From positions 1,056,001-1,120,000 of the forward strand of contig CAWJEN010000006.1 of the NCBI GenBank assembly GCA_963841915.1: a DNA stretch of 64,000 nt. Reading direction: 5' to 3'. Source of the stretch: an uncultured Planctomycetota bacterium (GTDB lineage: Bacteria > Planctomycetota > Phycisphaerae > Tepidisphaerales > Tepidisphaeraceae). The notes below the pieces were generated by a model. It made no database searches. It had not been told where the DNA came from and saw only the letters and a program-made list of their open reading frames with translations. The translations under genes and the position numbers were made by a program. This document shows, piece by piece, positions 28,772 to 36,085 of the stretch; the stretch's first letter is position 1; each line of letters opens with the position of its first letter.

Positions 28772-29479
28772 TCAGAATGGCAGCGGCGTTGCGTTGAGGT
28801 GCTCCAAGACGCGGTCGGCGATTGCCGCCCGCAGCCCGGACTCGCCGCCGAACTGGAAGTTGAGCTGTGAGGCGTAGGCGGCGCAAGCGTCGATCTTGGT
28901 CGGCAGCTCGCCCGTGATGTCGATCGACCAGGTCGACGAGGGCGGCTCGGGCTCGCGAAAGACGTACGGCGTGTCGTGCCAGAAGCGGGCGGTGCACCGC
29001 GACGGTACTTGCAGCTCGATCGCGGCCCGGATGACGTGTCGATGATCGACGTGCCTGCCGAAGCCGGCGGGCAGGTAGACGTGGTCACCGTCACCGATCC
29101 AAGGGATAAGCAGGTCGGCAACCTTCATCGAACAGGAGCTATCGCTCGACACGAGCGGCCCGAAGAGCATCGACGCGTCGTCGTACCCGCGGTGCGGCGC
29201 TTCAGGCAGGCCGAGGTGTGCGACGTGATCTTCATCGACCCCAAGGCGACGAAGTGCTTCGAGGTCTTCGTCGCGACGCAGGGCCATGTAGTCGATGTCG
29301 GGGCTGATGCCTTTGCTCGTCTGGCACGCAAGCGCAAAGCCGGTCGGGCTCGGCACGCTTTGGGTAAAGACGGTCAGGACGCGGACGGTTTCGCCCGCGC
29401 TGGCGAGTTGCTTGATGAGGCCGCCGACGCTGAAGACGGCATCATCAAGGTGCGGCGAGATGAAGACGTGCGACTTCAC
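28772..29479 (-). CDS. PIG-L/LmbE (MshB/BshB-like) N-acetyl-sugar deacetylase
   Basis: SPHLDDA, RRDED and HVDH motifs. GTGA overlap with GT4. Confidence 0.9.
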   Translation of the reverse strand: MKSHVFISPHLDDAVFSVGGLIKQLASAGETVRVLTVFTQSVPSPTGFALACQTSKGISPDIDYMALRRDEDLEALRRLGVDEDHVAHLGLPEAPHRGYDDASMLFGPLVSSDSSCSMKVADLLIPWIGDGDHVYLPAGFGRHVDHRHVIRAAIELQVPSRCTARFWHDTPYVFREPEPPSSTWSIDITGELPTKIDACAAYASQLNFQFGGESGLRAAIADRVLEHLNATPLPF

Positions 29480-30687
29480 AGCAGATGCGGCTCGCGGCGG
29501 AAGCGGCAATCGTCGGGCTCGCCGGTGATCGGCTCGAAGCTGCCACGCGGGCCGGCGGTGCGGATGTCGCGGTAAATCTGACTGATCTGCCGGGCGACGG
29601 TGGGCCAGGCGTAGAGCGTGCGGACCTCAGACAAGGCAGTGCGGGCCAGCCGCTGCCGAAGGCCGGCGTCGCTGAGCATGCGGTCGATCGCGGCGGTAAG
29701 CGCCTCGACGTCACTCACCGGGACAAGCAGCGCGTCGCGATCATCAGCGACGCAATCTCGCACGCCGACGGCGTCGCAGGAAACGATCGGCAGGCCGCTG
29801 GCCATCGCTTCCAGGATGGTGTTGGAGAACCCCTCGGCGTGCGTCGGGCTGACAAAAACGTCGGCCTTGCGGTAAAGATCGGGCGCGGCGAAGTAGTCGG
29901 CGTAGCCGGTGACGGTCACGTTCGGCATGGCGTCGCCGCGTCGCTTGGTCTCCTCGTAGTCCGGGCCGATGCCGCTGACGGTCAGGTGGAACGGGCGATC
30001 GAGTCGGTCGACAGCATCGAGCAGTTCGAGCACGCCTTTTCGCCGGTCGACGCGGCCGTGATAGAGCAGCCGCGGCGGCTCGCTCAAGTCGCCGAGCGTG
30101 CGGCCGGCGCGAGGCTGAAAGCGGCTCGTGTCGACTGCCCCGGGAATGATCGTGAAGACGTCGCGTGGCACGTCGAGACGATCGCTGACTTCCTGGGCGA
30201 ACGAGTCGCTGCCGATGATGACAGCGTCGGCGTCGCGGCAGACTTTCTGCATCGCCAGTCGATGCGTACAGCAGCAGTCGCCGACCCAATGCCCGTCGCC
30301 GCCCTGGATACTGACGACGCACGGCAGGCCAAGTCGCTTTGCAGCGACGAGGGCGGCGTAGCCCGTCGGATAGCCATATTGGGCGTGGATGACTTCGAAC
30401 GGGAACGCATGGTGACGCCGCCCGACCTCGTTGGCGAGTGCTTCAATGTCGGCCTCAAAATCGCCGTCGGTCTGCTCGCCGACGCTCTCGAAGCCGACGA
30501 CGCATGCGCCGTCAATACCGGGTGGCGGCCCGCCACCGTAGACGTCGGCCGTCTCGCCGCCGTAGTACTGGCTGAACATGGTGACGTCGTGCCCGATCGC
30601 CACCATCTGCCGCACCATGTTGTCGGCATAGACGCTCATGCCGCTGATCGTCGGAAAGTACCGACGCGACAGGAAGCAGATTCTCAT
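29476..30687 (-). CDS. GT4 family glycosyltransferase (MshA/BshA-like fold)
   Basis: GRVDRRKG, EGFSNTILEAMASGLP (Ex7E) and an unusual GDGHWVGDCCC segment. Confidence 0.92.
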   Translation of the reverse strand: MRICFLSRRYFPTISGMSVYADNMVRQMVAIGHDVTMFSQYYGGETADVYGGGPPPGIDGACVVGFESVGEQTDGDFEADIEALANEVGRRHHAFPFEVIHAQYGYPTGYAALVAAKRLGLPCVVSIQGGDGHWVGDCCCTHRLAMQKVCRDADAVIIGSDSFAQEVSDRLDVPRDVFTIIPGAVDTSRFQPRAGRTLGDLSEPPRLLYHGRVDRRKGVLELLDAVDRLDRPFHLTVSGIGPDYEETKRRGDAMPNVTVTGYADYFAAPDLYRKADVFVSPTHAEGFSNTILEAMASGLPIVSCDAVGVRDCVADDRDALLVPVSDVEALTAAIDRMLSDAGLRQRLARTALSEVRTLYAWPTVARQISQIYRDIRTAGPRGSFEPITGEPDDCRFRREPHLL

Positions 30688-33951: not shown

Positions 33952-34880
33952 GCCGATGCTCCCGTCGCACTGTTCGACCAGTCGTGCCACACGTCGGCGG
34001 CCTCGAGCACTTGCCGTTGCCACGCCTGCTCGGGGGCTTCGTGGACGATGTTCATGCGGCCGATGGCATCGCTCAGTTCAAAGCCGGCCGACTCGGCGTG
34101 CCACGCCATCTCCAGCGTCCGGTCAAGCACGTCGGCGGCGTGAAATACTCGTGCTTCGGGCGTATCGGTCCGCTTCGTGTGGGCCAGTGCCGCCCGCACT
34201 TTCGACTGCAATGGGTCGGCGATCTGCCGATACGCCTTCTCGAAGGCGGCGGTCGTGACCGGCTCGGCGAGATCGAATTGCGCCAGCAGCCGATCACCCG
34301 CAAAGCCGATGTCCGGCAAACTCGCGTTGAAAAGGTGGTGCGCCAGGCCGATCAGAAACACCGTCGCCGCGTCGGCATCGAGATGGTCCGCGAGCAGGAC
34401 GCCATACACGCCCGTCATGCCGCAGTGGTCGCCGTGACTCTCAGCCGGTTCGAGGATGAGCCGCGGCTGCGTCGGGTGCGTCGCCCCGGCCCGCGGCTGG
34501 GCGACAAGTCGCTGCACAAACGACGGCAGCCGTCGCCAGGCAACGGGCGTTGCCGACACATCGACCGCGTCGGCAAGTCGAGGCACGCCCGCCGCTTCGA
34601 CGGCTGCTGCCAGGACGCTGGTCGCGTCGTCAGACGACACGCCGTGGGCGACAAGCGTCGGGCCGTCGAGGGCTGCCAGCTTCGTTGCGGCAACGAGGCA
34701 GGCCGTCTCGCTGCGGGCGACCGTCTCTGCGTTGTCGCCGGCGAGCAGACGCGACCAGCTCCGGGCAAAGGCGATGTCGACGAGCGATGCACCGCCCGCG
34801 TCGGCCGGGCGAACGCGCTTGAGCCCGTTCATCTGCCGCAGCAGCGGCGTGAGTTGTCGAAGGACTTGAAGGTTGCTCAC
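33948..34880 (-). CDS. HD-like domain protein (putative phosphohydrolase)
   Basis: PRAG, ESHGDH, AHHLFNA and ADVLD, an HD-fold metal-ligand pattern with HH in place of HD. Confidence 0.65.
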
Positions 34881-36085
34881 GACGCACTCCGCTCCCGCAG
34901 GTCGCGAATGCACTGCCGCATGACGTTGTCATTGATCTCGTGCACGTCGACCGGATCACCGATGCCGCGAAGCAGCGTGATGGTCAGTCGGCCACCGAGG
35001 TGCTGGCGGAACTCTTCGAGGCCCTGCAGAATCTCGTCCTCGCGTGCAAGGGCCGGGTGGTCGAGCGGGATCTTGAGGTCGCGCAGACACCGGATGACGC
35101 GCTCGCAGTCGGCCTGCTCGAGGCCGAACATTTTGACGCTGTAGAGGCAGTCGATGGCCAGGCCGATGCCGACGGCCTCGCCGTGGCGTAGCTCGAAGTT
35201 CGTCATCGGCTCGAGTTTGTGGGCCGACCAGTGACCGAAGTCGAGCGGGCGAGCCTCGAGCATCTCGAACGGGTCACCGCCGCGGGTGATGTGGCGGAGG
35301 TGCCACAAGGCCGACTGTTCGATCGCGCTGCGGGAGGCGGCTTTGTCTCGCCGGGCGATCTTCATCGCGTTGTCGCACAGTTCGTTGAAGAAGCTCGCGT
35401 CCTTGAGCAGCGCGACCTTGACCGCCTCGCTGAAGCCGTTGCGGAACTCGCGGTCGGGCAGTGTCTCGAGCAGCTTCTCGTCGTTGATAACTGCCCACGG
35501 GACGGCAAAGCTGCCTTGCCAGTTCTTTTTGGCGAAGAGGTTGATGGCGTTTTTGACGCCGATGCCACTGTCGTCCTGGGCGAGTGTGGTCGTAGGCAGT
35601 CGGACCAGGCGGACGCCGCGATGGGCGACGGCGGCGGCGTAACCGACGGCGTCGAGCACCGCCCCGCCGCCGATGACCAGCACGTAATTGCGGCGGTCAA
35701 GGTCGTTGTCATTGATGGCCGCCAGCAGCGTGTCGATAACGGCCGGGTCGTTCTTGCAGGCCTCGCCACCCGGGACCAGAACCACCTCACCGGCCGGCTC
35801 GACACGATCGGCATGGGTCTTGAAGAACATGTCGATGCGCGAGAGCAGCGACGGGTCACCGTCGACGACGCCCGAATCGACGCTCGCCAGCACGCGGACC
35901 CGCGTGTCGGCAGGGTGCAAACAGTCGAGCAGGACGCTGGCGTCGGGGCCGAGCACGTCGTCAGTGAACCGCAGGCGGTGGCGGAACGGGACCGAGAAGT
36001 CGGCGTCGTAGGCGGTGCCGGTCGGCTGTTTCGGATCGATAGCGTCGGACACGAACGGCGAGGGTGCTGTAGCAGTGAGGGTCAT
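34877..36085 (-). CDS. 3-dehydroquinate synthase-like sugar-phosphate cyclase (EboD-type)
   Basis: [31 protein letters not shown] and [14 protein letters not shown]. Confidence 0.9.

Follow-up and report, generated by a model that had tools for sequence, protein, structure and literature searches.

A YcaO operon with a sugar-phosphate cyclase, a glycosyltransferase and a PIG-L deacetylase in an uncultured planctomycete: one form of a probable, widespread small-molecule pathway

The operon

We examined a window of 64,000 nucleotides (the whole stretch of DNA analysed) from an uncultured Planctomycetota bacterium, in which ORF calls place seven same-direction genes on the minus strand at 28772-36085. 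They are predicted to encode a DHQS-like, EboD-family sugar-phosphate cyclase (34877-36085; Pfam DHQ_synthase and DHQS_C), an HD-like protein (33948-34880; a helical N-terminal domain, then a YfbR/HDDC2-type HD fold), a Gfo/Idh/MocA NAD(P)-dependent oxidoreductase (32947-33951; three Pfam Gfo/Idh/MocA domains), an MBL-fold protein that is the partner of YcaO and bears an N-terminal four-Cys ribbon, CxxC...CxxC (32132-32953), the YcaO itself (30684-32135; PF02624, 165.8 bits against the Pfam cut-off of 25.7), a GT4 retaining glycosyltransferase (29476-30687; Pfam GT4 and Glycos_transf_1) and a PIG-L/LmbE-type de-N-acetylase (28772-29479; Pfam PIG-L, 54.6 bits). Five of the seven proteins exceed the Pfam cut-offs; the HD-like and MBL-like proteins have sub-threshold matches only (E about 0.002).

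At all six junctions a 4-nt overlap with the upstream stop is possible through an in-frame ATG, GTG or TTG, with a 7-nt overlap as an alternative for the start of the MBL gene. A divergent E2 acyltransferase gene adjoins the operon; its start is most likely the ATG at 36231, which leaves a gap of 145 bp. The ORF calls and junction check thus confirm a preliminary description of this DNA, which had reported seven co-oriented, overlapping genes and a gap of about 145 bp to the divergent E2 gene. The arrangement is not a chance one, since loci of about ten phyla repeat both the gene set and its order.

Conservation of the gene set

We found 368 relatives and examined the loci of the best 80, drawing gene maps from tblastn matches that covered at least 50% of the query; 57 loci, termed full-flank, had at least 6 kb upstream and at least 4 kb downstream of YcaO. 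Among these 57 (from the best 80 of 368), YcaO was accompanied by the HD-like gene in 54, Gfo in 53, MBL in 54, GT4 in 49 and PIG-L in 45, counts that overstate independent support because many of the loci are close kin. The five families therefore co-occur with YcaO across phyla, as the preliminary description had predicted. Most genes missing from a locus turned up in another part of that genome: all five Actinomycetospora genomes have the TIM-GT4-PIG-L trio away from the locus, and PIG-L was recovered in each of the four genomes that had no full match to it at the locus. GalE, a UDP-hexose 4-epimerase (294 bits, cut-off 262), was present in 14 of the 57. Every family conserved in the neighbourhood consists of enzymes for sugars, cyclitols or methyl groups. 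We conclude that the operon is probably one form of a widespread, uncharacterised small-molecule pathway.

The YcaO homologue stood alone at three of the full-flank loci (L016, L021 and L070) and at one short locus (L022), and the HD-like gene was not found in three of these four genomes. ABC sugar-type transporters adjoin two of the solitary homologues (L016 and L021).

Hosts of the cluster include cultured Streptomyces, Micromonospora, Hymenobacter, Skermanella and Rubrobacter. Judging from record titles, many hosts live in soil crusts, lichens, saline sites and glaciers.

The cyclase and the source of the cyclitol

The cyclase scored 512 bits against NCBIfam NF004852 (cut-off 333), and our tree places it in one clade (99/99) with L116, a protein encoded in an ebo cluster next to TatD, UbiA and a phosphodiesterase. 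The earlier label of EboD type thus holds: by sequence, the cyclase is a member of the EboD family related to genes within ebo clusters. Its matches to solved structures reached 72 bits for 2d2x and 123 bits for DHQS. It is a second paralogue beside a canonical aroB elsewhere in the genome (L082:1291-2385; TIGR01357, 350 bits). For the EboD family, the literature describes conversion of mannose-6-phosphate to DEI.

A cyclitol source, in the form of either an EboD-type cyclase or myo-inositol-1-phosphate synthase (MIPS), had also been anticipated and is present in 51 of the 57 full-flank loci (best 80 of 368), as EboD-like in 13 and MIPS in 38. A TIM-barrel gene is found in 33 of the 38 MIPS-type loci vs 0 of the 13 EboD-type loci, and the window's genome gave no match to MIPS. 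EboD-type loci fall in three separate clades of the YcaO tree, so the cyclitol source has been swapped repeatedly. In actinomycete ebo clusters, eboD is replaced by ino1 and two isomerase/dehydratase genes (preprint 10.64898/2026.05.21.724671).

The cyclase family was found in 25 of 121 Planctomycetota genomes, among which only the window's own genome has this YcaO; since the family occurs without the cluster, it is not specific to it. Homologues of eboB and eboF (about 50% identity) are scattered on another contig of the window's genome, eboC and eboE were not found in that genome with the queries used (E 1e-5), and none of these four genes lies within the operon. Given the eboB and eboF homologues, the cyclase could serve an ebo-type pathway as well as, or instead of, the YcaO cluster.

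The HD-like protein, the oxidoreductase, GT4 and PIG-L

The HD-like protein matched 2cqz in a profile search (E 3.5e-4), and Foldseek with its structure model (pLDDT 89.5) returned 2cqz, 4dmb and YfbR as top matches; profile and fold searches agree in confirming the predicted YfbR/HDDC2-type HD fold. Alignment revealed the invariant residues H149, H152, H181, H182, N185, D190, D250 and H280. Despite the fold, the H...HD...D metal site of HD phosphohydrolases is lacking: the dyad reads H181-H182, and N185 stands where the HDLAE stretch of the nearest solved relative has E, both being invariant in 19 sequences. The family is small: a set of 1.84 billion proteins holds 328 representative clusters of it. 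Although EboD-type cyclases set phosphate free, EboD-type clusters retain the HD-like gene just as MIPS-type clusters do; this, with the HH dyad and the N for E, makes the role of simple cyclitol phosphatase that had been assigned to the protein unlikely.

For the Gfo/Idh/MocA protein, NCBIfam gave sub-threshold matches only, to levoglucosan, inositol and sugar dehydrogenases. GT4 was likewise below all NCBIfam cut-offs; its best PDB matches were a sucrose-phosphate-synthase-like protein, MshA (71 bits), PimA and BshA (49 bits), and it probably transfers HexNAc to the cyclitol. The PIG-L translation shows PHLDD and HxDH motifs, and the solved structures nearest to it are glycopeptide GlcNAc deacetylases, namely the teicoplanin enzyme and Dbv21.

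YcaO and its MBL-fold partner

The YcaO is the single match to its family in the whole genome. The nearest solved structure is MJ1094 (6pe3; 104 bits), which NCBIfam labels a protein-thioamidation YcaO, yet the score against the equivalog for McrA-glycine thioamidation, TIGR03266, was 97.7 bits against a cut-off of 365. Among 25 homologues there is no variation in the columns aligned to the MJ1094 motifs E-x-x-E, N-G-x-G-A-G, L-E-x-x-Q-R-D and E-x4-R; the invariant residues are E67, E70, N162-G163, G165-G167, E180, R184, E277 and R282, a set that we take to be the ATP/Mg2+ ligands. The family has a conserved C-terminal tail of its own, ending Y-R-E-P-x-x-H.

In 12 of 74 loci, from two phyla (best 80 of 368), a single reading frame encodes both MBL and YcaO, and database proteins exist that carry both PF02624 and PF00753. 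The MBL-like protein scored 18.2 bits in Pfam (cut-off 22.7), with weak profile matches to PqsE and glyoxalase II; its structure model (pLDDT 95; TM 0.76 to 2p97) has a clear MBL fold. Residues conserved in the alignment are C7, C10, C23 and C26, then H114-x-H116, H169, D188 and H210; the HxHxDH motif lacks its D-H.

No small ORF (20-110 aa) was conserved across phyla in the 74 loci, a search that very divergent or distant peptides would escape; the one large group, from 14 loci, lies on the strand opposite the MIPS gene, at its 5' end. TfuA had no match in the genome (93.8% completeness), and the conserved neighbour families include no E1-like/Ocin-ThiF/RRE protein, TfuA, FMN dehydrogenase or peptidase; the families conserved at the cluster loci include no transporter either. 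The precursor peptide and RiPP partner proteins that the preliminary description had reported as absent from the single operon were not found in the wider set either. To our knowledge, all YcaOs characterised so far modify amides of peptides or proteins, and we know of none shown to act on a non-peptide. In passages of PMC8442711 the substrates named are peptides and proteins only.

A proposed pathway

On the strength of the observed gene identities and families and of how they are conserved, of the exchange between cyclitol sources, of MBL fused to YcaO and of the lack of RiPP features, we lean towards the view that the operon directs biosynthesis of a hexosaminyl-deoxycyclitol that is further modified by a non-RiPP YcaO. 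The chemical steps and their order we infer by analogy. The EboD-family cyclase would convert a hexose-6-phosphate, probably mannose-6-phosphate, to a 2-deoxy-inosose and phosphate; in other phyla MIPS and the TIM-barrel enzyme would supply the equivalent ring. The Gfo/Idh/MocA enzyme would then set the redox state of the ring, GT4 would transfer an N-acetylhexosamine from a UDP-sugar, and PIG-L would remove the acetyl group to give a free amine. Finally YcaO, with its MBL partner, would use ATP to phosphorylate a carbonyl-derived oxyanion and so form a C-N or C-S bond on a non-peptide substrate. For this last step, our leading guess, a tentative one, is that the freed amine condenses with a carbonyl to give an amidine, imine or enaminone; a second guess, only slightly less favoured, is thioamidation, the MBL protein delivering sulfur as TfuA does for other YcaOs. 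A point against the proposed pathway is that it would itself form a single amide, the acetamide, which PIG-L should remove.

The preliminary description had seen in GT4 and PIG-L a mycothiol- or bacillithiol-like low-molecular-weight thiol, with YcaO driving attachment or formation of the sulfur group. The two genes do lie beside a cyclitol source, the YcaO is nearest to thioamide-forming enzymes, weak sequence relatives of its MBL partner are thioesterases, PqsE and glyoxalase II, and the failure to find BshC in the genome can be added on the same side. GT4 and PIG-L nevertheless fall far below the cut-offs for MshA (TIGR03449, 70.4 bits against 462.5), BshA (79.8 against 273.7) and BshB1 (17.6 against 182.5); PIG-L has its domain, yet MshB and BshB are absent from its PDB matches at E up to 0.1; and the cluster holds no Cys-adding enzyme, Cys ligase or other sulfur enzyme, while the lack of a BshC match also counts against bacillithiol. 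It speaks against the thiol, too, that the cluster is present in genera that use mycothiol, such as Streptomyces and Micromonospora. We now regard such a thiol as quite unlikely; of the preliminary description as a whole, the neighbourhood predictions and the EboD-type label stand, the thiol is not supported and the HD phosphatase is doubtful.

It is also unlikely, if less so, that YcaO and MBL modify a peptide or protein encoded elsewhere (cf. the thioglycine of McrA, or ribosomal protein S12), with the sugar and cyclitol genes decorating the same target or merely co-regulated. The substrates of all characterised YcaOs, the NCBIfam name of MJ1094 and the three of 57 full-flank loci with a solitary homologue are consistent with it. 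It has to contend with the lack of a cross-phyla small ORF and of RRE/E1, peptidase, transporter and TfuA described above, with the low score against the McrA-type model, and with sugar and cyclitol genes that stay with YcaO across about ten phyla and through rearrangements. Very improbable, to our mind, is that the operon serves to break down or salvage an imported glycoside (aminoglycoside-like or of inositol), the cyclase being merely adjacent. Sugar catabolism often involves PIG-L, Gfo and TIM-barrel enzymes, transporters adjoin the solitary homologues at L016 and L021, and the cyclase family is also found without the cluster; however, anabolic genes occupy fixed positions (EboD-like or MIPS in 51 of 57, GT4 and GalE), there is translational coupling between the cyclase and the gene that follows it, and the conserved cluster families include no transporter.

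If the proposed pathway is correct, the ATP-driven carbonyl activation of YcaO extends beyond peptide backbones to small molecules, which would be a new enzyme reaction. It is possible, though short of probable, that this is the first small-molecule YcaO, making with its MBL helper an amidine, thioamide or enaminone on a hexosaminyl-deoxycyclitol, and that bacteria of about ten phyla share a protective product of a new class, be it a sunscreen, a redox buffer or a solute. As the cluster is widespread, bacteria of harsh surface habitats may commonly make a product that has been overlooked. The cluster also provides a second, independent case of the EboD cyclase and the inositol-phosphate route replacing each other, which bears on how deoxy-inosose is formed in nature.

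Comparison with known systems

The early steps of mycothiol (Ino1, MshA, MshA2, MshB) and BshA/BshB of bacillithiol follow a similar plan: a cyclitol or acid acceptor receives HexNAc from a GT4 transferase, and a PIG-L/LmbE de-N-acetylase then exposes the amine. The likeness to mycothiol extends to MIPS in the commoner cluster type. Unlike either pathway, the operon has no Cys-adding enzyme, and it has an EboD-type cyclase in a genome with no MIPS match; the YcaO, MBL and HD-like genes have no counterpart there.

The paromamine module of the 2-deoxystreptamine aminoglycosides comprises a DOI synthase, the GT4 proteins BtrM/NeoM and the PIG-L-type BtrD/NeoL. It shares with the operon a DHQS-like cyclase to deoxy-inosose, GT4 transfer of GlcNAc and PIG-L-type deacetylation to a pseudodisaccharide. 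The operon differs in that its cyclase, with the scores for 2d2x and DHQS given above, belongs to the EboD rather than the DOIS family, in having YcaO, and in the absence of an aminotransferase, which the 2-deoxystreptamine core calls for, from the window's genes and from the conserved neighbour families.

The ebo/thallusin clusters (EboA-F, with an Ino1-3 bypass in Actinomycetota) use the same cyclase family and offer the same alternative, EboD vs inositol-phosphate synthase with isomerase/dehydratase-type genes, although the operon lacks their UbiA prenyltransferase, TatD, EboE and phosphodiesterase.

The mycosporine-like amino acid pathway (DDGS cyclase, O-MT, ATP-grasp, NRPS-like/D-Ala-D-Ala ligase) is similar by analogy only: a DHQS-like cyclase, an optional methyltransferase, what would be an ATP-dependent joining of amine and ring carbonyl and, judged from record titles, hosts from sun- and drought-exposed habitats. 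Its cyclase is of another subfamily, and here there is an amino sugar and no ATP-grasp enzyme.

Among YcaO systems, MJ1094 of M. jannaschii (TfuA-independent thioamidation) is likewise a stand-alone YcaO without an E1/RRE domain, although its substrate is the McrA protein and the operon's YcaO family has its own C-terminal tail. With the YcaO-TfuA pairs the operon shares the idea of a dedicated helper protein, which here is of MBL fold and at some loci is fused to the YcaO itself.

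Gene cluster and its conservation

The ycaO gene of the window belongs to a gene cluster whose linkage extends over about ten phyla. In the window, seven minus-strand open reading frames fill 28772–36085: a DHQS-like cyclase (34877–36085; Pfam DHQ_synthase and DHQS_C above cut-offs), an HD-like protein (33948–34880), a Gfo/Idh/MocA enzyme (32947–33951; Pfam above cut-offs), an MBL-like protein (32132–32953), YcaO (30684–32135; Pfam 165.8 bits, above cut-off), a GT4 enzyme (29476–30687) and a PIG-L protein (28772–29479), the last two also above their Pfam cut-offs. The HD-like and MBL-like assignments come from sub-threshold Pfam matches together with profile and fold matches. 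Gene coordinates are given for the starts yielding 4-nt overlaps; at all six junctions a start codon in frame (ATG, GTG or TTG) creates a 4-nt overlap with the stop of the preceding gene, and an alternative start of the MBL gene gives one of 7 nt. The most likely start of the divergent 2-oxoacid dehydrogenase E2 gene is the ATG at 36231, leaving a gap of 145 bp to the operon. The preliminary description of a co-oriented, overlapping seven-gene operon near a divergent E2 gene was thus correct as to open reading frames, junctions and gap. A promoter/terminator scan found no promoter-like sites, and four terminator-like sites, equal to the number in shuffled sequence.

An Old Yellow Enzyme (NemA-like) gene lies 47 nt downstream of the PIG-L gene (27589–28724, minus strand). 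It carries a frameshift or assembly error, since Pfam Oxidored_FMN positions 2–107 fall in one frame and 142–341 in another, and it was not found in any of the 80 related loci (the best 80 of 368 relatives). Two neighboring genes of the Uma2 family (putative restriction endonuclease-like) are at 26149–26823 and 26963–27793, also on the minus strand.

YcaO homologues are numerous in the databases. Our scan of species genomes yielded 368 relatives, the best 80 loci of which were retained. These were mapped by tblastn with the proteins of the window and five extra families, at 50% query coverage or more, because a GC3-filtered gene caller at times took antisense ORFs; 23 loci were dropped for short flanks. 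The remaining 57, from the best 80 of 368, contain the HD-like gene in 54 cases, the MBL-like gene in 54, Gfo in 53, GT4 in 49 and PIG-L in 45, counts that are not independent, as many of the loci are close kin. The co-occurrence for which the preliminary description had proposed a test is therefore borne out. Gene order is near-constant. Record titles and tree labels place the carriers in Planctomycetota, Bacteroidota, Rhodothermota, Actinomycetota, Gemmatimonadota, Acidobacteriota, Abditibacteriota, Armatimonadota, Verrucomicrobiota and Pseudomonadota. Other conserved neighbor families are myo-inositol-1-phosphate synthase (MIPS), a TIM barrel, a SAM methyltransferase (29/57) and GalE (14/57).

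Several gaps in these loci are losses of linkage only. A PIG-L orthologue was found in each of four genomes whose locus had no full PIG-L match, and the five Actinomycetospora loci that stop after YcaO have a TIM-GT4-PIG-L trio elsewhere in the genome (5/5), so that the notion of Actinomycetospora clusters without sugar genes was rejected. In such split clusters (L045:1260-3362, likewise L049, L050 and L053) the trio is some kb away, and two tandem glutaminase genes lie upstream.

Source of the ring

The cyclase of the window scores 512 bits on NCBIfam NF004852 (cut-off 333), and a canonical aroB is found separately in the genome (TIGR01357, 350 bits); a housekeeping DHQ synthase role was rejected on the latter ground. 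The cyclase family occurs in 25 of 121 Planctomycetota genomes sampled, the cluster YcaO only in the window's own. Three of the eight cyclase contexts annotated belong to ebo clusters, where the cyclase has TatD, UbiA, a phosphodiesterase and a TIM barrel as neighbors. In a maximum-likelihood tree, built without duplicates from the window's genome, the short duplicate copies of refetched loci, or hits shorter than 250 residues (aroB among them), the window's cyclase and one ebo-cluster gene fall in a 99/99 clade. The label EboD-type, given from sequence inspection alone, is right on the strength of the NF004852 score, the ebo contexts and this clade. Outside the cluster, the nearest EboD-like gene shares 61% identity and belongs to another Planctomycetota genome (L114:5600-10030), where it has a third kind of context, with genes for a radical SAM enzyme, a metallophosphoesterase and an enzyme of the Gfo/Idh/MocA family. 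Homologues of eboB (TatD-like) and eboF (phosphodiesterase), about 50% identical to genes of a Planctomycetota ebo cluster, are scattered in the window's genome (C5:1225696-1226502 and C5:854931-856286); eboC and eboE were not found there with the queries used.

A cyclitol source nearly always accompanies the cluster elsewhere too, a point that the preliminary description had put up for checking. The EboD-type cyclase is present in 13 loci; in loci without it, MIPS takes its position (38 of the 57). MIPS-type loci have a xylose-isomerase-like TIM-barrel gene between YcaO and GT4 (33 of 38, against none of the 13 EboD-type loci). In the window's genome there is no match to MIPS, and neither a close TIM-barrel orthologue nor a methyltransferase orthologue was found. 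In a YcaO FastTree of 91 sequences, with local support values only and short or stop-containing hits dropped, EboD-type loci form three separate clades (Phycisphaerae; Planctomycetia; Armatimonadota/Verrucomicrobiota/Abditibacteriota), which indicates that the ring source has been exchanged several times, as judged from this tree. A thallusin preprint (10.64898/2026.05.21.724671, 2026) describes the same swap within ebo clusters, where ino1 and two isomerase/dehydratase genes stand in for eboD, and proposes the same deoxy-inosose as the end of both routes. A close relationship of the TIM barrel of MIPS-type loci to an EboE-position protein was rejected at 25.8 bits. Its NCBIfam matches to IolE, hydroxypyruvate isomerase and CbiR phosphodiesterase are all far under the cut-offs; a role as an IolE-like dehydratase or as a CbiR-like phosphoesterase is conceivable.

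HD-like and MBL-like proteins

Since their Pfam matches were only sub-threshold, alignments of the HD-like and MBL-like proteins were built from related loci. The HD-like profile matches PH0347 (2cqz, E 3.5e-4) and human HDDC2; its model is confident (pLDDT 89.5), with best fold matches to PH0347, HDDC2 and YfbR over the C-terminal half. The HD dyad is HH (H181, H182) in 19/19 sequences, and in all of these N185 aligns with the E of the HDLAE stretch in the solved relative's chain, a Glu that we take to be catalytic in YfbR. The gene is retained in EboD-type as well as MIPS-type clusters though EboD-type cyclases release phosphate, and with the altered catalytic positions this makes the plain cyclitol-phosphate phosphatase role proposed in the preliminary description unlikely. 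The family is small: 1.84 billion proteins yielded 328 representative clusters at E up to 0.001. In P0267 and P0318 the HD-like protein is naturally fused to the SAM methyltransferase, its neighbor in many loci.

The MBL-like protein has an invariant CxxC...CxxC ribbon; HxH, H169, D188 and H210 are kept, while the D-H of the HxHxDH motif is missing. Its model has a clear MBL fold (pLDDT 95.1), its profile has weak matches to two thioesterases, PqsE and glyoxalase II, and the ESM Atlas gave nothing beyond "MBL fold metallo-hydrolase". MBL and YcaO are encoded in one continuous reading frame in 12 of 74 loci (Bacteroidota and Verrucomicrobiota; drawn from the best 80 of 368), and database proteins of 757–835 residues bear both Pfam domains. 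Complex prediction for YcaO and the MBL-like protein scored 0.00, which counts neither for nor against binding.

YcaO, the proposed pathway and its alternatives

The nearest solved relative of YcaO is MJ1094 (6pe3, 104 bits). Columns aligned to its E-x-x-E, N-G-x-G-A-G, L-E-x-x-Q-R-D and E-x4-R stretches, presumably the ATP/Mg2+ ligands, are invariant in 25 homologues. A second YcaO paralogue, 45% identical to the first, follows PIG-L in 8 of the 57 loci. Second YcaOs (L025:13498-14994, likewise L023, L028, L030, L032, L033, L041, L056 and L075) occur in Armatimonadota, Abditibacteriota and Verrucomicrobiota directly after PIG-L; they share the C-terminal YREPxxH tail of the first and form their own clade.

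We infer every chemical step from what these enzyme families are known to catalyze. The cyclase would make phosphate-free 2-deoxy-inosose, the Gfo enzyme would reduce or oxidize the ring, GT4 would use a UDP-sugar to attach HexNAc (in some lineages GalE hints at the 4-epimer), PIG-L would liberate the amine, and the YcaO and MBL pair would use ATP for carbonyl activation. For this last step we tentatively favor a C-N condensation, in which the freed amine and a carbonyl would give an amidine, imine or enaminone, because the operon offers no ligase that could act on this amine, and YcaO and the deacetylase are conserved together. Ranked second, and slightly more doubtful, is thioamidation with the MBL protein as candidate sulfur donor.

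Protein-thioamidating YcaOs are the closest kin of the operon YcaO, yet the cut-off of their model is not reached (the best NCBIfam match, McrA-glycine thioamidation, gives 97.7 bits against 365). A target protein or peptide encoded elsewhere is accordingly an alternative, one we consider improbable. The window's genome (93.8% completeness) has one YcaO, and no TfuA was found in it. The conserved neighbor families include no E1/RRE protein, McbC-type dehydrogenase, peptidase or transporter. Among the 74 loci in which four or more cluster genes are present (from the best 80 of 368), no ORF of 20–110 aa outside the mapped genes is common across phyla; the only large group lies antisense to the 5′ end of MIPS. 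In line with the lack of a precursor peptide and of RiPP partners noticed in the window alone, no conserved one was seen in the related loci.

Counting against the favored reading, a pathway to a hexosaminyl-(deoxy)cyclitol further modified by a non-RiPP YcaO, are homologues that stand alone in three full loci (L016, L021, L070) and a short one (L022). The HD-like gene was not found in three of these four genomes, and two of the solitary YcaOs adjoin ABC sugar-type transporter genes. The latter are L016:9599-14569 (Halobacteriales MAG), which also has an AstE/AspA-type deacylase alongside, and L021:6335-11407 (Thermomicrobiales MAG); they may help to import or degrade the same compound. That the operon itself is catabolic we regard as very improbable.

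The preliminary description's mycothiol-like pathway was not borne out, and a mycothiol-like thiol as product is quite unlikely. The solved structure closest to GT4 is that of a sucrose-phosphate-synthase-like protein, followed by MshA, PimA and others, and GT4 scores far under the MshA and BshA cut-offs of NCBIfam. Of solved structures, PIG-L is closest to GlcNAc deacetylases (teicoplanin and Dbv21), with MshB and BshB not among its solved-structure matches at E up to 0.1.

Comparison with known systems

Full-text search found no literature in which a YcaO is connected with genes for sugars or cyclitols; one paper mentions a YcaO cluster of another kind (PMC13047742), and a 2021 survey of stand-alone actinobacterial YcaOs reports no evidence of non-RiPP roles in that phylum (PMC8442711). 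The early steps of mycothiol and bacillithiol synthesis have a similar logic, but the operon is no member, as it falls short of the MshA and BshA cut-offs. The paromamine module of the aminoglycosides is likewise similar, but membership fails, with no aminotransferase found. The ebo clusters have the cyclase and the EboD/inositol alternative in common with the operon, which does not hold the other ebo genes. We rate the cluster as a variant of known cyclitol-glycoside pathways, with a substantial chance that its YcaO catalyzes a reaction of a new kind.
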